Shown in pieces: positions 1 through 15,158 of a stretch of DNA of 15,546 nucleotides (within the stretch, counting starts at the first letter, position 1; the number at the start of each line of letters is the position of its first letter). The position numbers and the translations under genes are program-made. The notes under the pieces were generated by a model. It saw only the letters and a program-made list of their open reading frames with translations. It was not told the origin of the DNA and made no database searches. Where the stretch lies: positions 1-15,546 of IMG/VR virus record IMGVR_UViG_2541047895_000009. One strand, 5' to 3'. This DNA comes from a virus (lineage: Duplodnaviria > Heunggongvirae > Uroviricota > Caudoviricetes).

Positions 1-662
<662 letters not shown>

Positions 663-2716: not shown

Positions 2717-3508
2717 TTACGCCAGTTGTACGGACACGAACTCATCAGGGTCAGCCAGCAGCATCAGCGGTGCTGACTGAATCATGGTGAACTCACGCGC
2801 CGGATCGCCGGTGGTCACCCAGTTTTTCGGGTAGCGGGCAGAGGCGTTAATGCCTTCGCGCTGTGCGTCCGCATCCTGAATGCAGCCATAGGTGCGCAGA
2901 CCGCGTGCCTGAGTGTTCCCCAGTACCATCGTGTTGTCCGGCAGGAAGTTCTTTTTGACGCCGTTTTCCACGTACTGTCCGGAATACACGACGATGGCCA
3001 CATCGCCATACATCCCCTTATAGGACACCGCTTTACCCAGGTCTTTTACCGCTGTCTCCAGCTCGGAATTAGAGCCGCGACGGGTATCCAGCTTCTCCCT
3101 GACAGCTTTGAAGGAACGGAACAGCGCCCAGCCTTTCGGATCAAACACGATGATATTCACCACACCGCTGGCATTCAGCGCGTAGGCTTCAATATCGTCG
3201 GTCGGGTCATACGTGGACTTGTCACGCTTGCTCCACTCCGTGCCGCCGGACTGTGTGATGTTGTTCGCCGCACTGCGGCCCATATCCACCTCAACCGGAT
3301 CGAAGGCTTCACCGGTCATGGTGTATTTGCCCCTGAGCACGGCAGAAACGGCCTGCATCTCTTCGACCTGAGCAATGGCCAGCTCTTCGTCTCGCATGTT
3401 CTGCAGGATGATGCGACGGCGGCGGTAAGCCGGGTCCGCCAGATTCTGTGGATCTTCATCCGGCAGGCGACGCAGAGTCATCTGCGGATTCACCTCATGC
3501 TTGGGTTA
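2717..3508 (-). pseudogene. E: major capsid protein E, C-terminal fragment (codons ~83-341), separated from its 5' part by the inserted element
   Basis: Translation (PKH)EVNPQMTLRRLPDEDPQ...DEFVSVQLA matches the lambda gpE C-terminal 259 residues. An in-frame TAA lies immediately upstream of the homology and there is no promoter-proximal start. Confidence 0.9.
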
Positions 3509-3512
3509 CATG
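3494..3512. other. left junction of inserted element (attL-like): ctcaTGCTTgggttacatg
   Basis: Lambda E homology runs to about 3502, then diverges. The sequence is an imperfect direct repeat of 14911-14930 (aagTGCTTcggcttgacata), sharing the TGCTT core. Confidence 0.6.
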
Positions 3513-3583
3513 AGTCAAATATGAAAGGATGTGAATGATTTTTAGTGATAATATGCTTCAGAATTACTTCCAAAACGAACCGT

Positions 3584-3604
3584 TGCAATACATCATGCAA
3601 TACA
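3584..3604 (+). repeat. tandem direct repeats TGCAATACA (2 copies), candidate arm-type integrase-binding sites on the attL side
   Basis: TGCAATACA at 3584-3592 and 3596-3604. The same motif recurs in the same orientation at 14766-14802 beside int. Confidence 0.4.
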
Positions 3605-3626
3605 CAGGATATGTAAGGAGTTATTA

Positions 3627-3812
3627 ATGACTAATTCAGTTGATGTTCAAACCCGTAGAGAAGAATTTGAGCAAGGATATCGAGATGGCTTTCGTTCGGT
3701 TCAGGGCAATGTTTTACCCCCAAAAGCTCCAAGAATTGTACTTGAAACGGGTTCAAAACCTTACGATCAAGGCCATGCTTACGGGGTCAGAGATGCTGGA
3801 GGCAAGCGGTAG
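3627..3812 (+). CDS. small hypothetical protein (61 aa), first gene of the AT-rich cargo operon
   Basis: ATG at 3627 preceded by AAGGAG at 6-nt spacing. The overlapping alternative ORF 3640-3834 has no ribosome-binding site. No recognisable domain. Confidence 0.4.
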   Translation: MTNSVDVQTRREEFEQGYRDGFRSVQGNVLPPKAPRIVLETGSKPYDQGHAYGVRDAGGKR

Positions 3813-3856
3813 CTATCACTGGTATAGTCCATAGAAAAAGTGTAAGGGGTCCTAAA

Positions 3857-4618
3857 ATGGATAATTTTCTCAATGAGTTTTCGTCGGATCAGGAACGAGC
3901 TAGACATTTAGAGAACTTATTAATTAAGGTTGCTCGAGGAGGACCTCGAGATAATAGTGAAAATTATATTTCTCTTAGATCGTACTTTATACAAAACTCT
4001 GTATTAAAACTGTTGCTTCCTGCATTCGTAAGAGAAAACAGAAGCCTAAAAAAATTTTGGGGATTCATACAGCAGAAGTTCCCAACATATAAAGAGCGCG
4101 AGTACTTCATCTCAACTGAATTCACACCGTTATTCGATTATTTCGAAGAGAATCATGCTACGCCTTCGGATGTTCACATAACTGACGGATTAAGAAGCTA
4201 TGATGAGTGTGGCGTGAATGAAGCTTGGGCAAAAGCTCTAGACAGAAGAAACAACGATCCTGAAGGGGCTATTACAGCATCTAGAACATTGCTTGAGACG
4301 GTTTGTAAACACATTCTTGATGATTTAAGTATTACTTATGATAGAAATCTAGACATGAGTGAACTTTATAAACTAACATCCAAAGCACTTAATTTGGCTC
4401 CAGATCAGCACGGAGAACAGATTTTTAAGCAGATACTTAAAGGTTGCTCATCTGTGGTAAATGGCCTTGGCAATTTACGTAATAAATATGGCGATGCTCA
4501 TGGCATAGGGAAAAAACCAATAAAACCTGCTGATCGACATGCTCTTTTAGCTGTTAATCTTGCAGGAAGCATGTCAGTTTTCCTCATTCAAACATGGCAA
4601 AACTTGTCAAACAAATAA
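3857..4618 (+). CDS. Abi_C-domain (abortive-infection C-terminal, HEPN-like) protein, 253 aa
   Basis: C-terminal motif block ...TASRTLLETVCKHILDDL...GCSSVVNGLGNLRNKYGDAHG...ADRHALLAVNLAGSMSVFL matches the Abi_C pattern, including an R-x6-H motif (RNKYGDAH). AAGGGG ribosome-binding site 7 nt before the ATG. Strongly AT-rich relative to flanking phage DNA. Confidence 0.75.
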   Translation: MDNFLNEFSSDQERARHLENLLIKVARGGPRDNSENYISLRSYFIQNSVLKLLLPAFVRENRSLKKFWGFIQQKFPTYKEREYFISTEFTPLFDYFEENHATPSDVHITDGLRSYDECGVNEAWAKALDRRNNDPEGAITASRTLLETVCKHILDDLSITYDRNLDMSELYKLTSKALNLAPDQHGEQIFKQILKGCSSVVNGLGNLRNKYGDAHGIGKKPIKPADRHALLAVNLAGSMSVFLIQTWQNLSNK

Positions 4619-4671
4619 TACCTAATTTTTAACCTCAACTGATTAAATTTCGGTCAAACATCCGTTAGTGA

Positions 4672-4712
4672 AATACAAGTTGCTATGTAAATACACACCT
4701 GCAACTTGTATT
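4672..4712. promoter_or_regulatory. perfect 12-bp inverted repeat aatacaagttgc-N17-gcaacttgtatt, about 54 nt downstream of the Abi_C gene
   Basis: Read directly from the sequence. No U-run follows on either strand, so it is not a canonical intrinsic terminator; an operator or RNA structure is possible. Confidence 0.45.
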
Positions 4713-5572
4713 ACCAACCAAGTTTAGCTCCCGATATTACTCATTTCCATTATTTTTCCTTGGCTAGCGCTTCGTCGAACATTTTTACGTGTTATCTTCA
4801 AGGTAGATGCTCGCAGAAATGATAGTACCACCGATTCGGCGTTGACCATAAGCCAGCAGAACAAGATCCCCTTGGCCGGTTGTATTCGTTACACCACCAA
4901 ATGCATAGAATGCCTTGTTATCAGTATCTTGCTTACTCGGCTACCCACAAGATTGTGGGGATAGCATTTGAGCAACGTAGCCTATCGTCACAGAAGCCCC
5001 TACTACAAACATCATATTACTGGACGCTATACGCGCTCCTGACATTCAGATAGACACAGCAACGCAAATCATTTGCAGCAGACCAGAGCTTTTACTTTCC
5101 ACAATAACTGGCACAAATACGAATTTCCCGACCCTCAGTAGAGAGCACAAGCGCATCTTTTCCAATATTCTGTTTCCTATGAAAAATACAGAATGTCAGC
5201 TCGCGAAATTTACTAGTATTCAGATACTTTTCTAATCGAACCTCTCAGTTTAATCGTCATCATTACCTTATAGCTCTGCATTTCGAGTTCCTACAGTAGA
5301 GTAAGTGTTCAGTAACCCAAGTTCAGGAGAAAGGAAACGATCATGCCATTTTCAGTCCCAAATAATGCTTTCCATTTCCTTTCTTTTCAGGTGGTGTTTT
5401 AAATAAAAACATAAAGTTACGGCGAAGAAGAACGGAAACGCCTTAAACCGGAAAATTTCCATAAATAGAGAAAAACTGCGCGCCTTCCGCCCCGTAACGC
5501 TCCGGATCACCGGAAAGGACCCGCTCAAAAAAAGCGGCCACTGACGTGATTGTTTATGTTCCATGAGCGACA

Positions 5573-5592
5573 AAACCGCCCGGAGGCGGTTT
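5573..5592 (-). terminator. putative intrinsic terminator after the I-like gene
   Basis: Stem aaaccgcc/ggcggttt with a 4-nt loop. On the minus strand the stem is followed by UUUUG, about 20 nt after the I-like stop. Confidence 0.4.
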
Positions 5593-5610
5593 CACATAAA
5601 ACATTCTGCA

Positions 5611-6258
5611 TCAGCGACCAATCACCACGATTTCACCACCATCACCTTCATCAGCTGTGCTGATCTCCTGAGATACCACACGTGACCCCACGCGCATTTC
5701 ACCGTACAGAACAGGCAGGACATTGCCCTGGGCAACCATGTTATCCAGTGACGAGAAATACGTGTTCTGCTTACCGTTATCCGTTGTCTGTGTACGGGGA
5801 GTTCTGGCTTTCGGTGCCAGCATCTGAGCCACACCGCCAAGGATCATACTGGCCCCCGCACTATACATTCCTGTAATTGCTGCCGCTCCTAGCCAACCAG
5901 CGGGGTTCCACCACGCCACCGCAATCAGCGCCGCCCCCAGCACGGTCTGAAACACACCGCCACTTTTAGCGCCAGCAAGACGCGGTACGATGTGGATCAC
6001 AGCACCATTCGCCAGCGGCTCATTAAGACGGGCTGATAATTCATTTTCGCCTGCATCCCGCCCGGCAATCCGTACCTGATACCAACCGTCGCTCAGTTTC
6101 TGACGAAACGACGGTAGCTGTGTGGACAGAGCTCGGATGGCTTCAGCCCCCGTTTTTACACGAAGGTCGATGCGGCGGCCGAATCGTTGCAAATCCCCGT
6201 AAAGGCAGATTCGTGCCATGCCCGATGACGCCAGAGGGAGTGTGTGCGTAGTTGCCAT
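5611..6258 (-). CDS. lambda gpI-like tail assembly protein (215 aa)
   Basis: N- and C-termini (MATTHTLPLASSGMARICLYGDLQRFGRRIDLRVKTGAEAIRAL... and ...KQNTYFSSLDNMVAQGNVLPVLYGEMRVGSRVVSQEISTADEGDGG) match lambda gpI as recalled, with a divergent central segment. It is not followed by a J gene but by a hairpin and ORF-free DNA. Confidence 0.8.
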   Translation of the reverse strand: MATTHTLPLASSGMARICLYGDLQRFGRRIDLRVKTGAEAIRALSTQLPSFRQKLSDGWYQVRIAGRDAGENELSARLNEPLANGAVIHIVPRLAGAKSGGVFQTVLGAALIAVAWWNPAGWLGAAAITGMYSAGASMILGGVAQMLAPKARTPRTQTTDNGKQNTYFSSLDNMVAQGNVLPVLYGEMRVGSRVVSQEISTADEGDGGEIVVIGR

Positions 6259-6298
6259 TTGTCGGTATACCTCTCTCGTTTGCTCTGTTGTTCAGAAA

Positions 6299-6682
6299 TT
6301 AGCAGATCAACTTATAGCGTCCCTTCCGAGCATTGCGGCGTACACGTTCAATCTTGAGGCATAGCGCCGCATCTGGCTTTTTTGGGACTGGTACACGGCA
6401 ATATTCAGAAGCGCGAGGAATATTATTTATCCAGTCAATCACTTCGCTTAAATACCAGGCCTTACGCCCTTCCGTAACCTGCACACGCTCCGGGAACTCT
6501 CCACGGGCCTCAAGGTTTAGCAGTGTACGACGACTCAGGGTTGTAAGTTCCATCACCTGATTCATATCAACAAGACGCTCGCTTAAACGCATTTTGTCAG
6601 CGATAGCTTTTAATTCCTCTACAGCTGGATTTGGGTACATAATTTCGGCAATTGGCTTAAGGTCATTGTAATGATTCTGCAT
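6299..6682 (-). CDS. AlpA-family (MerR/Xis-type helix-turn-helix) DNA-binding protein with an N-terminal extension, 127 aa
   Basis: Core ...MELTTLSRRTLLNLEARGEFPERVQVTEGRKAWYLSEVIDWI fits the AlpA pattern. AAGGGGGA ribosome-binding site 5 nt before the ATG at 6680-6682. Confidence 0.6.
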   Translation of the reverse strand: MQNHYNDLKPIAEIMYPNPAVEELKAIADKMRLSERLVDMNQVMELTTLSRRTLLNLEARGEFPERVQVTEGRKAWYLSEVIDWINNIPRASEYCRVPVPKKPDAALCLKIERVRRNARKGRYKLIC

Positions 6683-6693
6683 TGTATCCCCCT

Positions 6694-7035
6694 TTACACA
6701 CGAGCCAGCGGCTGAACAGAAATACCTGAGCCAACAAACGCTGCAACCTTTACTGACAGTTCTTTTACAGACTCAGGCCAGTTCAGAGCATCAACATTTA
6801 AGACACCTGTCTTATAGACCTGAGCCTGTGTTTTTTTCGCGGTGTCGATTTGTACAGCGGATACATAAACCGCTTTACCTACGCTCGTACCATCCCATAC
6901 CACCAGTGCACCTGTTGCATCTTCCTGCATCAGTGGCGTAAATGCAGGAATTACCCCTTTATTAGCTGAAAATATCCCCAGCGTAGTAACCAGTGCTTCA
7001 GTGCCAGCCATGAGTTCAGTGTAATGAGTAGCCAT
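6694..7035 (-). CDS. gpD-like head decoration protein (113 aa), divergent from prophage D
   Basis: ALVVWDGTSVGKAVYVSAV...YKTGVLNVDALNWP aligns with the lambda gpD motif [19 protein letters not shown]...[23 protein letters not shown] ribosome-binding site; translationally adjacent to the E-like gene. Confidence 0.75.
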   Translation of the reverse strand: MATHYTELMAGTEALVTTLGIFSANKGVIPAFTPLMQEDATGALVVWDGTSVGKAVYVSAVQIDTAKKTQAQVYKTGVLNVDALNWPESVKELSVKVAAFVGSGISVQPLARV

Positions 7036-7044
7036 TGCTCCCCC

Positions 7045-8085
7045 TTAGCCAATGCGAACGGTAACAAAACGATTGATGCGGGCCGGTATTGGCTGTGGTG
7101 CTGAATGTGTCTGCACATATTCAATAGCCGGATCACCAGGCACAATATAGTTTTTCGGTGCAAGTTCGGCTTTAGTCAGCCCCATTCGGATTAGCTCCGG
7201 ATCCTGAATACCGCCATAGGCGACAATCCCCTGAAGAGCCGTATTGCCAAGCACCATCAAATCAGGATCAAGGAAATGTTTTTCAGTTCCGTCCTCGTCG
7301 GTATAACGCCCGCTGTAAACAACAATCGCAACATCGCCCATATACCCTTTAAAACTCACCGAATCACCAAGGTCTTTAAGGGCCGTTTCCAGTTCGGAAT
7401 TAGAACCACGACGGGTATCCAGAGCCTCTTTTATCGCTCTGAATGAACGGTATTTCTTCCATACATTACCGCCCATAATGATGATATTAGTGACGCCCTC
7501 ACTAAATTCTGCGTAGTTCTCAATATCATCATTTGGATCAAAAGTTTCTTTATCCTTACCTGACCACTCAGCACCGCCAGACTGAGTGATGATATTTTGT
7601 GGTTTAATATTCCAGTCCAGCTCATAACGTTCAATACCATCGCCCTCAATGATATTTTTCCCCGTTGTGATTGCCTGAACGGCAAGCCATTCAATACGTG
7701 CACGAATAGCTTTAGCTTGATTTACAATCGCCTGTTTAACTTTAATATTACGCGCCCCAAAAGCATTGTATTGCTCAGGTGATACACCAGCAGGGCGCAC
7801 AGCTAACTTATTTGGATCAATGCTGCTTTTCGGCTTCATATAGCCTGGACGAATTGTTTTTGATTCGTACCCTTCGTCACGTGAAACTTTACTACCCACC
7901 ATAGGAGAACAAAACGCTGCAATTGGGATATTTGGATCGTCGATTGTATCAAGAATAATATCGCGCGATTCAAACATTACCGAGCGAGTAAAAAACAAAC
8001 GGGTAAACAACGCATTTAGTTGTTTTTGTACATCTACAGCATTAACCACCTGTACAAGCTGGGTAGGCGAATATAAATCAACCAT
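7045..8085 (-). CDS. lambda E-like major capsid protein (347 aa), divergent second copy encoded within the inserted element
   Basis: Clear homology along its length to lambda gpE (GYMKPK vs GYVKPK; ITQSGGAEWSGKDKETFDPNDDIENYA vs ITQSGGTEWSKRDKSTYDPTDDIEAYA; LDTRRGSNSELETALKDLG...GDVAIVVYSG). Start taken at the ATG at 8083-8085, 6 nt after AAAGAGG; the 404-aa track ORF is an upstream extension. AT-richer than the prophage E. Confidence 0.85.
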   Translation of the reverse strand: MVDLYSPTQLVQVVNAVDVQKQLNALFTRLFFTRSVMFESRDIILDTIDDPNIPIAAFCSPMVGSKVSRDEGYESKTIRPGYMKPKSSIDPNKLAVRPAGVSPEQYNAFGARNIKVKQAIVNQAKAIRARIEWLAVQAITTGKNIIEGDGIERYELDWNIKPQNIITQSGGAEWSGKDKETFDPNDDIENYAEFSEGVTNIIIMGGNVWKKYRSFRAIKEALDTRRGSNSELETALKDLGDSVSFKGYMGDVAIVVYSGRYTDEDGTEKHFLDPDLMVLGNTALQGIVAYGGIQDPELIRMGLTKAELAPKNYIVPGDPAIEYVQTHSAPQPIPARINRFVTVRIG

Positions 8086-8259
8086 ACGCATCCTCTTTGC
8101 ATTCATTAAAAATAATTGTGGATATATGCTATCACCGATATTTGTCATGCGAATACATGCAACCGAGTGCAATGTTGTATAAAGTTTTGGGATGACAACT
8201 TCAGCGCGGATAATTAGTGTTAATATCTTCACTCCCTTTGGTCGGGATTTATGTAGCAT

Positions 8260-8294
8260 GCCGGAAAATTTATTTTTTTCCGGCCTTTTTTATT
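8260..8294 (+). terminator. GC-stem hairpin plus T-run (gccggaaaa-N7-ttttccggc CTTTTTTATT), terminator-like on the plus strand
   Basis: Read from sequence between ssb and the E-like gene. The U-run follows the stem only on the plus strand, so it would stop antisense or convergent transcription rather than ssb read-through. Confidence 0.35.
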
Positions 8295-8302
8295 GGCAAT
8301 AT

Positions 8303-8752
8303 TTAAAACGGAATATCATCTCCCCATTGCTCATTATCTCCCACTGGTGGATGGCTTCCTTGCTGATCTGCCTGTTGTTTTGCTCTGTTCAGTGCGTCAG
8401 TAGCCTGCCCCTGTTGGCCTTTTTTGCCGCCCGGTCGCACCGTTCGCGCACTGATTACGCTGTCTGCGATAACCTGCCAGCCCTGCCGCGTTTCACCGTT
8501 CTGTCCAGTCCACTGACTCACCTGCATGTTACCCGCCACGCTCAGGAGTTCGCCTTTGTGATGCTTTGCCAGCGCGTCGGCTTGTCTGCCAAACGCCAGA
8601 ACAGATAACCACATCGTCGCCTGACCGTCATCCGATTGGCTGCAGGGCAGTGATACCGCCATACGCGCCAGCGTCATGGGGGTGCCCTTGCTGGTCTGTT
8701 TTGTCTGCGGGGCGTCCACCAGCCGCCCGTAAGCTGCTATTTGCGCCGTCAT
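8303..8752 (-). CDS. ssb: single-stranded DNA-binding protein (SSB)
   Basis: 149 aa. OB-fold-like N-terminal region, Gly/Gln-rich linker and the hallmark acidic C-terminal tail ...WGDDIPF. ATGA overlap with the upstream ORF. Confidence 0.85.
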   Translation of the reverse strand: MTAQIAAYGRLVDAPQTKQTSKGTPMTLARMAVSLPCSQSDDGQATMWLSVLAFGRQADALAKHHKGELLSVAGNMQVSQWTGQNGETRQGWQVIADSVISARTVRPGGKKGQQGQATDALNRAKQQADQQGSHPPVGDNEQWGDDIPF

Positions 8753-9006
8753 GCTGCCTGCTCTCCGGACTTAATATTGATGGTTGTCACTTCCTCCGCT
8801 TCGGCAATCTCCCGTTCGGTCAGCGTGGCAAAGTTTGCAGCCGCCGTTGTCATGAATGCGCTTATCAGTTCGGGATGTGCTTTCGCGTATCCTTCCCCGG
8901 CGTTGCGGTCTATTGCCTTAATCGCCACCCTTAGCCAGTGTTCAGCCATATCAAGGGCGCGGTAATGTGGCTTTATATGTTTGTTCAGTTTTCCTGATGT
9001 GTGCAT
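8749..9006 (-). CDS. hypothetical protein (85 aa), between origin and ssb
   Basis: ORF translationally coupled to ssb (ATGA overlap). No recognisable motif. Confidence 0.45.
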   Translation of the reverse strand: MHTSGKLNKHIKPHYRALDMAEHWLRVAIKAIDRNAGEGYAKAHPELISAFMTTAAANFATLTEREIAEAEEVTTINIKSGEQAA

Positions 9007-9051
9007 TTTTATTTTTACCCCCTCGTTTAAAAAGTTTTTTGTGCACCACCA

Positions 9052-9283
9052 CCTTGTCTACCTTGTCTACCTGATTAGTTATCAGGCCAGTAATGGCGCG
9101 GGTTTCAGGGAGGTAGACAGCCCCAAATAGCTGTCTACCTCATCTCTACCCGTCTCCTTACCTGTCTACAAAAATGGGTAGATAAGGTAGATAACAGGTA
9201 GACAGTGAAAAATAGTTATCTACCTGCATTAATACATTGAAATAAAAGTATTTTCTTTCAGTCAGGTAGACAAGGTAGATAAC
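9052..9283. repeat. iteron array, putative replication origin: at least 11 copies of GGTAGA(C/T)A / T(G/A)TCTACC in both orientations
   Basis: Copies include cttgtctacc x2 (9053-9071), gaggtagacag, gctgtctacc, cctgtctaca, gggtagataaggtagataacaggtagacag, ttatctacc and caggtagacaaggtagataacc. Lies immediately downstream of the primase gene in an AT-rich non-coding gap. Confidence 0.7.
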
Positions 9284-9295
9284 CATTGCCATTTT

Positions 9296-11047
9296 TTATA
9301 AAAACGCATCGCAATCATCAGTAGTCGTTGCGTTGGTCTGCGTGACTCCCTTAACTTTTCGCGTAATATATTCATATCCGTAAACTTTCGCCGCTGACCT
9401 CATAGCCTTTCCGAACTCATTCACGCTCAAACATTTCCCCTTTCCTGTGTATGCCATGAAGGCCATATAGACACGGTAAAGGCTGTTTCTGGTCGTGTAC
9501 TTCACGGAGTCACCACCACCGCCCATCATTAGCCCACGAGCTTCCTCCAGAAACTCAAGCGCCGCGCAAAGCTCAACAACTGGATCCGTTTGCTGCTTTA
9601 TTGCCAGAGCTTCATCACCGTCACGCTGTTCCAGTAGTAAAGCCCTTGCCTTTTCAGGGTCAGCAAAGTTAGCCAGCAAGCGGCGGATAATTACGGGGAT
9701 TTCTGCCGCTATCTTTTCCGGTAATTCCTTGTCTTTTTCGTCCTCCCTTACAATGTTGTCGAACCGGAAAATCACCCGACGGCGTGACACACCTCCGGCC
9801 CGTTCGGTAAAGATCATCGGGTCGTTATTGGTTGCCAGTACCACCGCCCTTATTATCGTCGTGAATCGCTTCTCATATTTCGGATTGATTTCAACGGGAT
9901 CGCCTCCCGTGATTTTCTTGATGCCCGTGCCTTCCCCCGTATATTTCGGCTGATCGGCAAGGACGATAAGACGACTCCCGACAACCTGCGCGCGCCCTCC
10001 TGCATCATCGAGTGATGTCATCTCTGCGCTTACGGTGTTCTGTTTGCCTGCAAGCAGGGTGGCAATATGGGTAAATGTACTCTTACCGCTTCCCCCGTCT
10101 CCGGTGGCCTCAATGAACATCTGCCAGTCGTAGCGGTTCGCCATAATCATGTATAACGCGGCACATATACGCATCATCTTGCGCGGGTCTTTTCCTGCAG
10201 CATGTTCAAGCCATTTATGGAAATTTGGCGCATTATCGCGGATGTTTTCCCCTGCTACTGGTGGCGTGTACTCAATACCATTGTGCGTGGTGCTCCAGTG
10301 CTCCGGCGAGTGCGGAGAAAATTCCCCCGTTTTCAGATTAAGCACACCATTAGTGAACGGTAGCAAATCACCGGACGGCTCCCCCATGGGGGCGGCAATA
10401 ACTTTTAACGCTTCCACGGCGTTATTGATTACGCGTTTGCTGAACGTGGCCCTGTGCTCTGAATAGATCGCCACCATTTCGCGGCTCAGCTCCATTGTGC
10501 TGACCGGACACCATACCCCGCCGCGCCATACGTGGACGATTTCACTTTCTGCATGAACACAAACACCATCAAAGCGATCGGCAAGTAGTTGTGCCCGCTC
10601 ACTGTCTGCCATCTGTGAAAGTTGCGCCTTTTGCTTCGTCGGAAGATTAAGCACCAGGCTTTCCCCACGCTCGCATTCCTCTTTGAGTCGCGGCAACTGG
10701 TCGGATAAATCCACAGGGCTGGTGTCAGTAATCCCCGCGTATTCGTGTACGGTCTTCACTCCAGCCACAGCCAGTAACGTAACAATCTGCGTCATGCTGT
10801 GCTCTGTGATATGTCCTGCGCGGTAAACACGCACACACTGACGATCTTCATCAATGATCCGGTAATCGGTGATGTTTTTCAGTTGCTCATCAGCCAGCAC
10901 GACAGGCGGCACATCGTCGGCGGCAATATGTTTACCCGCCCATTCCTGCCACTCTTTCGCATGGCTCCACGCATCACTACCTGCAAAGATGATTACCTCT
11001 GTCAGTCTGTCGCGTGGCTGTTTTTTTAAGTTCGGTGCCAGTTTCAT
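9296..11047 (-). CDS. P4-alpha-type primase/replicase (D5-N / phage-plasmid primase C-terminal family), 583 aa
   Basis: Walker A P-loop EATGDGGSGKSTF plus the typical satellite/PICI primase-helicase layout. ATGA overlap with the upstream 99-aa ORF. Confidence 0.88.
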   Translation of the reverse strand: MKLAPNLKKQPRDRLTEVIIFAGSDAWSHAKEWQEWAGKHIAADDVPPVVLADEQLKNITDYRIIDEDRQCVRVYRAGHITEHSMTQIVTLLAVAGVKTVHEYAGITDTSPVDLSDQLPRLKEECERGESLVLNLPTKQKAQLSQMADSERAQLLADRFDGVCVHAESEIVHVWRGGVWCPVSTMELSREMVAIYSEHRATFSKRVINNAVEALKVIAAPMGEPSGDLLPFTNGVLNLKTGEFSPHSPEHWSTTHNGIEYTPPVAGENIRDNAPNFHKWLEHAAGKDPRKMMRICAALYMIMANRYDWQMFIEATGDGGSGKSTFTHIATLLAGKQNTVSAEMTSLDDAGGRAQVVGSRLIVLADQPKYTGEGTGIKKITGGDPVEINPKYEKRFTTIIRAVVLATNNDPMIFTERAGGVSRRRVIFRFDNIVREDEKDKELPEKIAAEIPVIIRRLLANFADPEKARALLLEQRDGDEALAIKQQTDPVVELCAALEFLEEARGLMMGGGGDSVKYTTRNSLYRVYMAFMAYTGKGKCLSVNEFGKAMRSAAKVYGYEYITRKVKGVTQTNATTTDDCDAFL

Positions 11048-11343
11048 TTTTTGCCCCTGAATGCGTTAATCATGCTTTTCATTTTCTGGATGTTTCCCCG
11101 CGCTTTTTCCCTGCTGGTGGGCTTACTGCGGGGTGCGGCATATACCAGGGAAAAATCACGCCGGAACTGATAAACAGGCATCACGCAGTCATAGCTATAC
11201 CCCTCACGGCGGTAAGTGATGCGCCGTTCTGCCACGCCTTTAATCGTTACCGTGCCGCCGTATTTATCGCGGTAAATATCGCCGTTCATAAATTCAGGCC
11301 GAGCGGGGCCGCTGGCAATAAAGCCAGAATTTTTCATTTCCAT
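11044..11343 (-). CDS. hypothetical protein (99 aa), translationally coupled to the primase
   Basis: ORF with ATG at 11341-11343; its stop overlaps the primase start. No motif recognised. Confidence 0.55.
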   Translation of the reverse strand: MEMKNSGFIASGPARPEFMNGDIYRDKYGGTVTIKGVAERRITYRREGYSYDCVMPVYQFRRDFSLVYAAPRSKPTSREKARGNIQKMKSMINAFRGKK

Positions 11344-11360
11344 ATTATTTATTCTTCGAC

Positions 11361-11582
11361 TTAACTCGACTTATTTGATAGCAGGGCACTATTTATTGCG
11401 TCATTGAGTTTTTCTGCTGCTTCATCAATAAGTGACAACAGGCCATAAGCAATATTTGCATCTTCATTGTCATTTATGCAATCAAGCCACATATTTAATA
11501 TTGCTTTTGCTGAATTATTTAAAGTTAATGAACTCTCTGCACATGCTAACAATTTAAAAAAGACTTCTCGTTCTGTATTCAT
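11361..11582 (-). CDS. hypothetical small protein (73 aa), AT-rich
   Basis: ORF in a tightly packed same-strand array upstream of the primase. Confidence 0.45.
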   Translation of the reverse strand: MNTEREVFFKLLACAESSLTLNNSAKAILNMWLDCINDNEDANIAYGLLSLIDEAAEKLNDAINSALLSNKSS

Positions 11583-11774
11583 TTAATCCCCCACCAGCTT
11601 ACTTTCTTCCTCAATCAGGAAACTAGCGACACTTCCCGAAAGGCGCGCCAGTAGGCTCGCCAGCGCGGATATATCAGCATCTGTAATTTTGTTCGGGTAT
11701 ACCTCAAGAAGGCGGCAAATAATCTCTGTTTGGTGCGCACGTTCAGCGGCTTCGTGTAATGTGATTTCCTGCAT
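11583..11774 (-). CDS. hypothetical small protein (63 aa)
   Basis: ORF abutting neighbours with start/stop overlaps, suggesting an operon. Confidence 0.45.
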   Translation of the reverse strand: MQEITLHEAAERAHQTEIICRLLEVYPNKITDADISALASLLARLSGSVASFLIEEESKLVGD

Positions 11775-11959
11775 TAATGCACCTCTTTTAATTCATACAC
11801 TGCTGAAATAATGACTTGTGATAAGCCATATTCTGATGATTCGCTTCTCACCGCAGCAATAGCCGTCTGAACATTAACAGCCTTCACGTTCTGAGCGATA
11901 CCAATTGTGTGGCCTCGTGGGTTAACAGCTCGGGCAAATACACGGAAGGTTTTAAGCAC
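11774..11959 (-). CDS. hypothetical small protein (61 aa), GTG start
   Basis: GTG at 11957-11959 preceded by AGGAGG at about 6-nt spacing. Overlaps the stop of the upstream ORF. Confidence 0.45.
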   Translation of the reverse strand: MLKTFRVFARAVNPRGHTIGIAQNVKAVNVQTAIAAVRSESSEYGLSQVIISAVYELKEVH

Positions 11960-12155
11960 GGCGCACCTCCTGACGAATACGGGCAGCGAATACCATCACG
12001 CAGCCAGTTGGGGATTGCTGGCGGGCTTCCTGTTCGCTGATGGCCTCGATGGTAATCACGCGCGGTTGTGCCGTACTCAAGGCGATAAAACGCCAGATGT
12101 ATTTATTCAGGTTGTGCGAGTTCCGCCCTTGCGGGTGTGTGGTATGATTTCTCAT
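11952..12155 (-). CDS. hypothetical small protein (67 aa), first gene of the leftward regulatory operon
   Basis: ATG at 12153-12155 preceded by GAGGT. The longer track ORF (to 12215) would run through the upstream inverted-repeat region. Confidence 0.45.
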   Translation of the reverse strand: MRNHTTHPQGRNSHNLNKYIWRFIALSTAQPRVITIEAISEQEARQQSPTGCVMVFAARIRQEVRRA

Positions 12156-12190
12156 AGCTACCTCGATACTGTTGCTATCGTTGGTGGTTA

Positions 12191-12292
12191 AACGCCCTGT
12201 ATGTGTTGCGAGCACTGCAGGGCGTTGTTCCAGAGCAATAAAACATGATAAGGTGTGTACCTATCAAGAAGCATACTAAGCAATAGGTACAT
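12191..12292. promoter_or_regulatory. divergent promoter/operator region with two inverted repeats
   Basis: AACGCCCTG-N18-CAGGGCGTT (12191-12226) and GTGTACCTAT-N18-ATAGGTACAT (12255-12292), located between the divergently oriented small-ORF operon and the RHH gene. Confidence 0.4.
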
Positions 12293-12294
12293 AC

Positions 12295-12489
12295 ATGTCA
12301 ACTATCATTCAGCGCGATAAACAGCCGAAAGGTGCTGGTAAGGCACCGGCATTTCAGATCCGTATCAACCCGGAACTAAAAGAACAAATGGTTAGTGCGG
12401 CTGCAAAAGAAGGAATGAGTTTGGCTAATTGGCTTAAAGAACTAGCAAGAGCAGAACTACGCAAACAAGGTATTGAACCTAGAGGTTAA
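12295..12489 (+). CDS. Arc/ribbon-helix-helix-type small DNA-binding protein (64 aa), candidate repressor or antitoxin
   Basis: KAPAFQIRINPELKEQMVSAAAKEGMSLANWLKELARAELRK fits the RHH beta-strand plus two helices pattern. No obvious Shine-Dalgarno; the second inverted repeat abuts its start. Confidence 0.6.
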   Translation: MSTIIQRDKQPKGAGKAPAFQIRINPELKEQMVSAAAKEGMSLANWLKELARAELRKQGIEPRG

Positions 12490-12513
12490 GACTTTTAAAA
12501 GGATCTGTGAGAG

Positions 12514-13239
12514 ATGCAAAATCTAAAACGAATAAGTGAATATAATTTAACAGACAATCCTATCCCACATTATTTCCCTCATGATAGTAGATTCCTGTCT
12601 CTACTTGGGAAATTTTCGTTCCGACTTGAAGATCTAATAGTATTTCACTCATTTGTTTATCATACATATAACATAAATCTTAAGGAGATACAAAAAATTG
12701 CAGATAACACTCCCCAATATAATCCAGACTTATTAGACGATGAAGAGCATGAAATGGCCTTGATTTCTCAAGCCAGACATAGAGAGAGGGTTGGTTATTA
12801 TGATGATCTTAATAGAAAAGCCTCATTTTTTGCCAATGACAGTGTCGTAATTAATCTTTGGGCTATTATTGAACAGTTTAGTACCATGGCATACTCTTTG
12901 CTAGAAGCAATTATTAAAGAAATACCTGAAAATCAAGTTAAAGTTCCATATACATGGGATAAATTAAAAAAGAAATACTTAAGTTATGGTATTGACCTCT
13001 CCCAACTTGATTCTTACGATGTCATTAACGAAACTAGGGTTTTAAACAACAAAATCAAACACCTTTATATTGTCGATGAAAACCTTGCCTCTTTTCCTTT
13101 TTTCAAGGACAAAGAGAACAAGTCATTATTAGGAATGGAATATAGGCTTCAAGATTATGTTATTGGAACTCATAAGTTCATCGGGCATCTTTTAGAGGAT
13201 TGCTCCATAAAATTAGGAAATAAGGCAAACATGATTTAA
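12514..13239 (+). CDS. hypothetical protein (241 aa), very AT-rich cargo gene downstream of the RHH gene
   Basis: Long uninterrupted ORF 24 nt after the RHH gene. No motif I can assign with confidence. Confidence 0.65.
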   Translation: MQNLKRISEYNLTDNPIPHYFPHDSRFLSLLGKFSFRLEDLIVFHSFVYHTYNINLKEIQKIADNTPQYNPDLLDDEEHEMALISQARHRERVGYYDDLNRKASFFANDSVVINLWAIIEQFSTMAYSLLEAIIKEIPENQVKVPYTWDKLKKKYLSYGIDLSQLDSYDVINETRVLNNKIKHLYIVDENLASFPFFKDKENKSLLGMEYRLQDYVIGTHKFIGHLLEDCSIKLGNKANMI

Positions 13240-13243
13240 ATTA

Positions 13244-13270
13244 ATTAGGTAGGTAATAAACCTACCTAAT
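13244..13270. terminator. perfect 10-bp inverted repeat attaggtagg-taataaa-cctacctaat between convergent genes
   Basis: Read from sequence; sits between the 241-aa gene (+) and alpA (-). AT-rich flanks on both sides, so possibly a bidirectional terminator. Confidence 0.45.
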
Positions 13271-13279
13271 TGAAATGAT

Positions 13280-13513
13280 TTACTTATTTAAGTACCATTC
13301 CCCACGAATCCACGCCTGCACCTCCGAAAGGCGATATGCTACGGCAGTGGCACCTATTTTAATTCGCTTTGGAAACTTTCCTTCTTTCTCTAACTTCCAT
13401 CGAGTGCTATTAGCAAGAGTAGTTAACTCACGGCATTCTTTCTCACGGATCATTCGGTCAATGTTAGGAATGTATTCCAGACCCTTTTTATCAACAATTG
13501 CCATTTTTTTCAT
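13280..13513 (-). CDS. alpA: AlpA-family excisionase/transcriptional regulator (77 aa)
   Basis: ...CRELTTLANSTRWKLEKEGKFPKRIKIGATAVAYRLSEVQAWI fits the AlpA helix-turn-helix pattern. Immediately downstream of int on the same strand. Confidence 0.8.
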   Translation of the reverse strand: MKKMAIVDKKGLEYIPNIDRMIREKECRELTTLANSTRWKLEKEGKFPKRIKIGATAVAYRLSEVQAWIRGEWYLNK

Positions 13514-13514
13514 G

Positions 13515-14750
13515 TTAACCAGCCTTTTGTTTGAGGATTGTCACTTTTGAATCAGCAGCTGCGATGCTATTGAGATATGTAGTCCAGAGTTCCAGAGCAT
13601 CCAGTTTTTTAGCCATAAACTTACTCCGGTTGTAAACACCTGCCACGCCAGGTAGCGCATGGCCTAACAGTTGTTCTACTACATAAAATTCAACACCGAG
13701 ATCACTTAGATGAGTAGATAGCGTTCTTCTAAGGTCGTGTAGTGACCATTGTTTTTCATGGCCCAAACGTTTACCGATTTTCCCCCCAATCTTGCTTACG
13801 CTTTCTCTAATTCGCAGACTTCCCAGCACATAACCAGTATGTTTTGTCTCTTCGTGAACATCCGTTACCCACTGTCGTAGAATTTCAGGTACTGGTCTGA
13901 CGATTTCAACACCAGTTTTTGAGTGATCTTTTGGTACAGTCCAAACCCAACTTTCGAGATCCCATTCGCTCCATTCTGATAATCGGGCTTCACTCATTCG
14001 ACATCCAAATACTGTACAAAGCACAAACATTTTTCGCGTGTATTCAGACATTAGTTTTAAATCAGGCTCGACAAAAATTGCCTTCCAGAGCTGGCCGAGT
14101 TCGGCTTCATCCAGAACCCGATCCCGCTTACCTGCAATCTGCCCCACATCACTCATGCGCAAATCCTTTAAAGCATCACACGTCGCGTACTGGCGTACCC
14201 GACAAAAACGAAGAGCTAATTTAGTGTCAGAAAAAACATACGCCGCCATAACTGGTGCATTACTTTTAATTCGGTCAAAACAGTCCAGCCATTCATATAG
14301 GTGAGTGTCATTTACGGGCAAATGACCGATATAGGGAAAGATATGCTTTCGAAATCTGCCAAGCGTTACAGCATGAGTTTTACGACGCACCTTACAGTAA
14401 TTTTCATACCAGTAATTTAGTGCATCCTCCACTGTGACCGGCTTTAAGCGTTCTTCAGCCTGAATCTTAATCTGGATACGCGGATCACGTTTGTCAGCCA
14501 ACCAAGCACGGCACTCGTCGCGCTTTTCCCTTGCCTGTTTGAGTGACATATCAGGATATTTACCCAACGTTAGCCAGACCGGAGCAGCCCGGCCACCTGC
14601 TAACCTGTAGAAGAAAACAAAGCTCACAGCCCCCTTGGTACTCACACGAATAGAAAGCCCCTTTCCATCAGCAATGGTGATCTGCTTTTCTCTGGGTTTC
14701 CCCAGATATCCTTTAAGTGCTTTGTCGCTCAGTTTGTTCTCGCCAGCCAT
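13515..14750 (-). CDS. int: P4-type tyrosine integrase (411 aa)
   Basis: N-terminal arm-binding-type domain (LSDKALKGYLGKP...ADGKGLSIRVSTKGAVSFVFFYRLAGG...WLTLGKYPDMSLKQAREKRDE) and a catalytic domain with R...HDLRRT...LLGH...Y. Start taken at the ATG at 14748-14750; the 455-aa track ORF is an upstream extension. Ends about 160 bp inside the right junction. Confidence 0.9.
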   Translation of the reverse strand: MAGENKLSDKALKGYLGKPREKQITIADGKGLSIRVSTKGAVSFVFFYRLAGGRAAPVWLTLGKYPDMSLKQAREKRDECRAWLADKRDPRIQIKIQAEERLKPVTVEDALNYWYENYCKVRRKTHAVTLGRFRKHIFPYIGHLPVNDTHLYEWLDCFDRIKSNAPVMAAYVFSDTKLALRFCRVRQYATCDALKDLRMSDVGQIAGKRDRVLDEAELGQLWKAIFVEPDLKLMSEYTRKMFVLCTVFGCRMSEARLSEWSEWDLESWVWTVPKDHSKTGVEIVRPVPEILRQWVTDVHEETKHTGYVLGSLRIRESVSKIGGKIGKRLGHEKQWSLHDLRRTLSTHLSDLGVEFYVVEQLLGHALPGVAGVYNRSKFMAKKLDALELWTTYLNSIAAADSKVTILKQKAG

Positions 14751-14765
14751 TTTTAGCCCCAAAAA

Positions 14766-14802
14766 GCAATACAAGCTGCAATACAGAGATGATTGCAACA
14801 CA
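14766..14802 (+). repeat. direct repeats GCAATACA x2 plus variant TGCAACACA in the int upstream region, candidate arm-type Int sites
   Basis: gcaataca at 14766-14773, tgcaataca at 14777-14785, tgcaacaca at 14794-14802; same motif and orientation as 3584-3604 at the other end. Confidence 0.4.
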
Positions 14803-14882
14803 CAGATAACGAGGAAAATCCAGTGAAAGCGCCAGATAAACTTATTCTTTATTATCAAAAGATTAAGTGTAAAAACCAGCAA

Positions 14883-15158
14883 CTACACGAAAGCCTCAGA
14901 AAGCCATGCTAAGTGCTTCGGCTTGACATATCCCGGCGTAAATTCAGAGGTGGAGCCGCCACGGGAGCGGATAACCTCACCGGAAACAATCGGCGAAACG
15001 TACAGCGCCATGTTTACCAGCCCCGGAATTTGTGAGAGATAGACTTTCTCCGTGGTGAAGGGATAGCTCTCACGGAAAAAGAGACGCAGAAACAGCGGAT
15101 CAAACTTAAATTTCTGCTCATTTGCCGCCAGCAGCTGGGCGGTTGTGTACATCGACAT
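14883..15158 (-). pseudogene. E: major capsid protein E, N-terminal fragment (codons 1-82) fused to 9 element-derived codons and a stop
   Basis: MSMYTTAQLLAANEQKFKFDPLFLRL...SEFTPGYVKPKH matches the lambda gpE N-terminus, then LAWLSEAFV and stop from element DNA. Confidence 0.9.
14905..14930. other. right junction of inserted element (attR-like): gctaagTGCTTcggcttgacata
   Basis: Lambda E homology begins at about 14914. Imperfect direct repeat of 3494-3512 sharing the TGCTT core. Confidence 0.6.

Follow-up and report, generated by a model that had tools for sequence, protein, structure and literature searches.

What is a dense cluster of short repeats doing in the non-coding DNA between two replication genes of an element that is recorded as a virus? 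The question is raised by positions 9052-9283 of IMG/VR record IMGVR_UViG_2541047895_000009, of which the whole stretch of 15,546 nucleotides analysed here is called the window below. A first-pass annotation, made from the letters alone, had taken these repeats for the iteron-rich origin of a primase-dependent satellite, and had counted at least 11 copies of GGTAGAYA in both orientations. That count holds once degenerate sites are included: the window contains 10 exact matches, all within 9055-9281, and two copies on the minus strand with one mismatch each, GGTAGAGA at 9143-9150 and TGTAGACA at 9163-9170. The resulting 12 sites are indeed found in both orientations, six on each strand. By chance one would expect 0.47 exact matches per window, and a count of 10 was reached in none of 200 shuffles, which argues strongly against a chance low-complexity repeat. 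The 6-bp core GGTAGA has 11 copies in the cluster and a single further copy in the window, at 4802, while the full unit is about 9 bp long and reads (A/G)GGTAGAYA. The coordinates, the non-coding status and the placement after a primase-annotated gene and before the SSB operon were also given correctly, as the repeats fall in an intergenic gap of 289 bp (9007-9295) that is overlapped by no ORF of at least 50 aa, and that separates a 583-aa gene from an 85-aa ORF and ssb. Just 12 nt separate the repeat region from the stop codon of the 583-aa gene, and at its other end about 45 nt remain before the start of the 85-aa ORF.

The element that carries these repeats is chromosomal and is not a catalogued phage. 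The window is Escherichia coli chromosomal DNA, with 99.75% identity to RM14723 and 2015C-4136CT1, and a blastn search of positions 8700-9700 against a phage collection yielded no match. Within the window lies an island of about 11.4 kb (~3500-14915, with junctions near 3497-3506 and 14905-14920) that is nested, in the same orientation, in the lambda-E-like major capsid gene of a lambdoid prophage, between ...GYVKPKH and EVNPQ, so that the capsid gene is split into fragments at ~2717-3505 and ~14911-15156. At the island junctions no exact att identity block of at least 8 nt was observed, AGCATG alone being shared exactly. All key island genes are on the minus strand, like the capsid gene itself, and follow the order int, alpA, an Icd-like gene, several small ORFs, a DUF4222 gene, the 583-aa gene, the gap, the 85-aa ORF, ssb, the island's own capsid and decoration genes, an AlpA-like gene, a lambda-I-like gene, a cos-like stretch and an Abi-family gene. 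The same nesting in the capsid gene was found in RM14723, 2015C-4136CT1 and EC931. The insertion point corresponds to site E:Phage_cap_E:80, that of the 11capE class of helper-embedded PICI (HE-PICI; Mageeney et al. 2023, PMC10111431). 11capE (NRG857c, CP001855.1) resembles the present island both in site, being an element of about 11.4 kb co-oriented in the capsid gene at the same residues, and in gene content, since it likewise carries int, alpA, primase and ssb, together with a cos-like stretch and with capsid and decoration genes of its own. The term "satellite" is thus borne out, but by site and gene content the element belongs with the helper-embedded PICIs of the 11capE class and not with P4-like satellites. 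A related island in RM10466 (~390-1520 of the locus compared) abuts a truncated terminase gpA gene, which suggests a further helper-embedded PICI at a different late-gene site.

The gap has a close homologue in an element whose replication has been studied. It matches the region 3' of the primase in CFT073 with 75.1% identity (query positions 1-283, E 2e-42), and in EcCICFT073, the prototype Gram-negative PICI, the matching segment is bounded by the primase on one side and by the 85-aa ORF/ssb on the other. In the report by Fillol-Salom et al. (2018, ISME J, PMC6092414), a rep-ori segment of EcCICFT073 kept a temperature-sensitive plasmid at 44 C, whereas the rep mutant gave zero colonies at this temperature and the ori deletion significantly fewer. 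The two regions have the GGTAGA core in common, with 11 sites at offsets from the stop codon that match within 1 nt, as well as the AT-rich tract, a 21-bp block and the downstream 85-aa ORF and ssb, so that in DNA homology, core and spacing alike the window has an origin of the EcCICFT073 (GGTAGA) type. They differ in the last two iteron positions, which are mostly CA/TA in the window, CA/TA/GA/GT in CFT073 and GG/AG in other alleles, and in the location of the island, which is a prophage capsid gene in the window as opposed to a chromosomal site for EcCICFT073. Since the region is homologous to a tested pri-ori module, since its cores are selectively conserved and since iteron type co-varies with the C-terminal domain of the neighbouring Rep protein, we consider it very probable, from sequence comparison, that 9052-9283 is the replication origin of a Gram-negative PICI of the EcCICFT073 kind, and the reading of the repeats as an iteron origin is supported on these three counts. 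The origin type is one already described, the close CFT073 homologue having been tested experimentally.

The arrangement of the 12 putative Rep-binding iterons within this origin (9052-9283, read on the minus strand and delimited by site search and by homology to the EcCICFT073 ori) is highly regular. Next to Rep is a tandem pair on the plus strand (9265-9272 and 9274-9281) with a spacing of 9 bp, which starts 14 nt past the Rep stop codon and whose core offsets of 17 and 26 nt from the stop are identical in all GGTAGA-type relatives. It is followed by a 40-bp AT-rich spacer (9225-9264, 22.5% GC) that is the candidate DNA-unwinding element, and then by a central block of eight sites (9112-9224, from site search and inverted-repeat analysis) at 9112 (+), 9132 (-), 9143 (-, degenerate), 9163 (-, degenerate), 9177 (+), 9186 (+), 9197 (+) and 9217 (-). 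Two palindromic site pairs with 12-bp arms, at 9111-9140 and 9196-9225, are found in this block. Beyond it comes a second 40-bp spacer (9072-9111), which is placed symmetrically to the first but has an unlike composition (50% GC versus 22.5%) and contains a near-invariant, GC-rich 21-bp block (9088-9108, minus strand; CTGAAACCCGCGCCATTACTG in the sense of Rep). The Rep-distal tandem pair (9055-9062 and 9064-9071, minus strand) closes the array as the inverted mirror image of the proximal one, the two outer pairs forming inverted repeats with 21-nt arms that are 95% complementary. Read in the sense of Rep, the cores start 17, 26, 72, 94, 105, 114, (126), 146, 157, 179, 225 and 234 nt past the stop, with orientations, in the same order, - - + - - - (+) + + - + +. 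The 12 sites thus form six mirrored pairs of opposite orientation, and in five of the six the midpoint is exactly 9168.0 in window positions.

The AT-rich spacer is flanked by oppositely oriented iterons, with 9265 (+) and 9274 (+) on one side and 9217 (-) plus nine more sites on the other. The least stable 40-mer of the region begins at 9208 (dG -42.4 versus a window mean of -54.5, sd 4.9). Across the window as a whole, however, this spacer does not rank with the least stable 40-mers, which counts against it as the melting site. A scan of 8900-9400 detected no sigma-70-like promoter and no terminator-like site, and Rfam searches, of the whole window at the gathering threshold and of 8950-9350 at E-values up to 1, returned only noise.

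We compared the gap across an alignment of 10 diverged GGTAGA-type sequences (the window, CFT073, Shigella and seven other E. coli). With the 21-bp block set aside, 54 of 66 iteron-core columns were invariant versus 19 of 143 other columns (Fisher p ~3e-22), and as the aligned sequences are related, the fair control is precisely this contrast with neighbouring columns in one alignment. The offsets of the sites from the stop codon were constant to 1-2 nt across these 10 origins. The 21-bp block is likewise conserved, with a mean majority fraction of 0.97 versus 0.68 for the remaining non-iteron columns, although the spacer around it is variable; it sits in the spacer that mirrors the AT-rich one. 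The gap as such is matched in 567 of 5426 complete E. coli genomes.

More distant relatives have other iterons, namely TGTTCAC in Serratia aquatilis and in vB_KppS-Ant, TGTTCAT in Morganella and TGTCCC in E. albertii. Nevertheless, a common layout is kept, in which a tandem pair just past the stop is followed by an AT-rich tract, mixed sites and an inverted tandem pair, and the AT-rich tract is at the same position in all relatives, whatever their iteron type. The 21-bp block, in contrast, is absent from TGTTCAC-type origins. When the proteins are compared domain by domain, those of Serratia and Morganella are closer to the window protein (GGTAGA) in the helicase (66-69% identity) but not in the C-terminal domain (28-29%), whereas with P4 alpha and KppS-Ant (TGTTCAC), which share their iteron, identity is 53-58% in the helicase and 43-48% in the C-terminal domain. 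C-terminal domains from the GGTAGA group share 80-92% identity with one another. In these comparisons, iteron type tracks the C-terminal domain of Rep and not its helicase. The co-variation covers three specificity groups, and because a scan of genome contigs for relatives gave four loci, the groups on which it rests are few; over these three groups it suggests that the C-terminal domain binds the GGTAGAYA iterons.

Rep itself ("Pri-Rep", 9296-11047, minus strand) is a predicted initiator-helicase of 583 aa with Pfam matches to D5_N, DUF5906 and Pox_D5. It consists of an N-terminal module (residues 1-145), D5_N (152-282), the P-loop part of an SF3 helicase (315-416) and a winged helix (487-578), and is 80% identical over its full length to the EcCICFT073 protein. 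Residues 225-441 match the helicase of SaPI5 PriRep5 (PDB 7OLA, E 7e-15), and for residues 487-578 the match is the origin-binding winged helix whose structure has been solved for P4 alpha (PDB 1KA8, E 3e-7). The RefSeq record of RM14723 (NZ_CP027103.1) flags both primase and integrase (compare window 9296-11047 and 13515-14750) as frameshifted pseudogenes. Since neither ORF is disrupted in the window or in 2015C-4136CT1, we rejected these frameshifts as a property of the island and regard them as specific to that strain or assembly.

Is Rep, then, a primase of the P4-alpha type, as it was called in the first-pass annotation? For residues 137-579 the name is apt, as P4 alpha aligns with this part alone (41% identity, through the D5_N, SF3 helicase and winged-helix parts), but for the N-terminal part it is not. 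P4 alpha carries a DnaG-type primase domain (PMC2777425), whereas neither the zinc ribbon nor the Toprim domain expected of a P4-type initiator was recognised in Rep, where this part of alpha is replaced by the 145-aa module (window 10613-11047). Residues 1-145 have no Pfam match, while the Morganella relative has Zn_Ribbon_Prim and Toprim_3. The module is confidently predicted to be an alpha/beta domain with weak matches to Toprim-like folds, and could represent, at most, a degenerate Toprim-like fold. When it was aligned to Toprim regions by hhalign the result was not significant; the sole aligned stretch was "TEVIIFAG" against "SEVIIAEG" of Morganella, and in this alignment an invariant Ala of the Rep module occupies the position of the catalytic Glu. 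The N-terminal 145 aa are just 47% identical to the EcCICFT073 module, yet 83% identical to the N-terminus of a DUF927 helicase of E. albertii, and the module is also found fused to RepA-like AAA_25 helicases. Its presence in both kinds of helicase protein suggests that it behaves as a mobile cassette. Because Rep has no recognisable zinc-ribbon and Toprim primase domains, the term "primase-dependent" does not suit this origin; "initiator-helicase-dependent" appears the safer description, with any primase activity of Rep regarded as putative.

Past the origin, the first gene is the conserved 85-aa ORF (8749-9006, minus strand), which overlaps ssb and is found in CFT073 and other relatives. It has a strong Shine-Dalgarno region (~9010-9040) that is invariant among relatives, and matches no Pfam or NCBIfam family; its product may be a replication accessory protein. 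The island SSB (8303-8752, minus strand), assigned by family match, belongs to the replication module. The ORFs of Rep and ssb and the iterons are intact and evidently under purifying selection.

Several known types of origin can be compared with this one. Origins of the iteron plasmid oriV type (RepA/pi/TrfA) have direct repeats of 17-22 bp in one orientation and a WH1-WH2 Rep that recruits DnaB, whereas the sites in the window are 8-9 bp long and in both orientations, and the initiator is itself an SF3 helicase. SaPI origins, reportedly dealt with by Ubeda et al. in 2007, are more similar: the ori is immediately 3' of rep (the first iteron of the window being 14 nt past the stop), short iterons, 6-12 in number, accompany an AT-rich tract that has at least two opposed iterons on each side, and the initiator combines an SF3 helicase with a winged helix at its C-terminus, all of which is also seen here. 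Both SaPI and Gram-negative PICI origins are described as lying just after the rep stop (PMC6092414; PMC9371898), and for SaPI Reps recognition of the iterons has been ascribed to the C-terminal winged helix, with binding of ori fragments observed by EMSA (Qiao et al. 2022, PMC9371898). The differences are in the iterons, which are 5-6 bp long in SaPIs as against 8-9 bp in the window and have another sequence, in the AT-rich tract, which in the window, unlike in SaPIs, is off-centre with two sites on one side and 10 on the other, in the lack of DNA-level homology and in the host, which is Gram-negative for the window.

The comparison with P4, for which iteron and crr data were taken from the annotation and sequence of GenBank X05623, leads to the alternative that survives best. 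P4 also has an iteron cluster just past the stop of the alpha gene, with sites in both orientations, and that cluster is crr and not ori (X05623). One may therefore also consider that the repeats in the window are a cis-acting Rep-binding enhancer similar to P4 crr, a copy-control or handcuffing site, or a relic origin in an island that is now replicated only passively with its helper prophage, the more so as two of three experiments detected little replication of 11capE after excision (PMC10111431). However, P4 requires two separated cis elements, ori and crr, and the window has a single cluster: with 11 of its 12 GGTAGA cores here, there is no second cluster in the island that could serve as ori. 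The P4 type I iterons bound by alpha are moreover TGTTCACC, as against GGTAGAYA in the window, and the gene content of the element is that of a PICI and not P4-like. In EcCICFT073, rep and the homologous segment sufficed to maintain a plasmid, and deletion of this segment lowered maintenance (PMC6092414); the intact state of Rep, iterons and ssb under evident purifying selection argues against an enhancer or a relic. We therefore regard this alternative as improbable.

Another possibility is that the repeats are operators through which a regulator (AlpA, the 85-aa protein, or Rep acting as a repressor) controls the downstream ssb-capsid operon. The cluster does lie upstream of the 85-aa ORF and ssb, the palindromic pairs at 9111-9140 and 9196-9225 look operator-like, and iteron initiators in general often autoregulate as well. 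Yet the scan of 8900-9400 offers no sigma-70-like promoter for such operators to act on, and Gram-negative PICIs are transcribed unidirectionally through the ori region according to PMC6092414, which also reports that deletion of the homologous region impaired replication. Twelve sites over 230 bp around an AT-rich tract are in addition what one would expect of an origin and not of an operator, and control of transcription would leave the co-variation of iterons with the Rep C-terminal domain unexplained. On this evidence, operators are very improbable. Finally, that the repeats are RNA or DNA hairpins (such as a terminator, or a processing site that follows the primase gene), or else a chance low-complexity repeat, has next to no probability despite the two palindromes with 12-bp arms, given that no shuffle (0/200) matched the observed count, that neither a terminator-like site in 8900-9400 nor an Rfam match was detected, and that relatives keep the GGTAGA cores but not the complementarity of the arms beyond them (those of CFT073 are GGGGTAGAGTG and GGGGTAGATAG), which fits protein-binding sites better than hairpins.

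If the cluster is the origin, as we prefer, replication could proceed as follows. Upon induction the island would express Rep from the gene just upstream of the ori, and the C-terminal winged helix of Rep would recognise the GGTAGAYA sites. Since the 12 sites form six mirrored pairs, Rep would be expected to form self-loading hexameric helicases of the SF3 type whose orientation on one half of the origin is opposite to that on the other, presumably as a double hexamer. The 40-bp AT-rich spacer beside the Rep-proximal pair is where melting would most plausibly occur, leading to replication of the theta type. Synthesis would be carried out by the host polymerase, with primers probably supplied by host DnaG because Rep has no recognisable primase catalytic domain, and the SSB encoded downstream would coat the unwound strands.

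The 21-bp block at 9088-9108 has no place in this model. A joint hypothesis that would give it one is that Rep is a non-primase with a dead Toprim-like module ("EG" changed to an invariant "AG") that has been swapped as a cassette among three unrelated types of helicase, D5/SF3, DUF927 and RepA-like AAA_25, and that the block is a separate cis element, such as an entry signal for the host primase or primosome or a site for the 85-aa protein. We consider this combination rather unlikely; were it true, the dyad-symmetric origin would be functionally asymmetric.

How far the origin makes the island an autonomous replicon, as had been proposed, is conditional. For 11capE, two of three experiments gave weak or no replication after excision, attP:attB staying near 1, and the island is in addition replicated passively as part of its helper prophage (PMC10111431). 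The same paper places an ori downstream of pri but does not dissect it. Because of the attP:attB ratio in these two experiments, autonomous replication of the present island may be weak as well.

Other features of the island concern its relation to the helper. Positions 5375-5524 share 88% identity with the cos region that the surrounding prophage has immediately upstream of its small terminase gene, as seen in RM14723, and are probably, on the strength of this similarity, the cos site of the island; a search for lambda cosN/cosB sequences with up to three mismatches gave no match, and a comparable shared cos-like sequence has been reported for 11capE (PMC10111431). Downstream of the capsid and decoration genes are a lambda tail-assembly-I-like gene (5611-6258, minus strand) and a second AlpA-family regulator (6299-6682, minus strand), an arrangement that fits captured helper late genes. 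Accessory cargo includes an abortive-infection family gene (3857-4618, plus strand), a HicB-like antitoxin gene (12295-12489, plus strand) and an ORF of 241 aa (12514-13239) on the strand opposite to the core genes, to which no function was assigned. The tail tube gene of the helper prophage is interrupted by an IS3-family element (window 1-654 and ~665-950), which in RM14723 has the opposite orientation. The helper is therefore probably defective in the window strain, and the embedded satellite may be stranded.

For annotation, these results identify the window as carrying a PICI replication module and fix the coordinates of its origin. The comparative results, namely the exact dyad symmetry, the specificity that appears to reside in the C-terminal domain and a Rep with no recognisable primase domain, refine the known picture and leave it unchanged. 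They also show that helper-embedded PICIs residing in prophage capsid genes have the GGTAGA-type origin of EcCICFT073.
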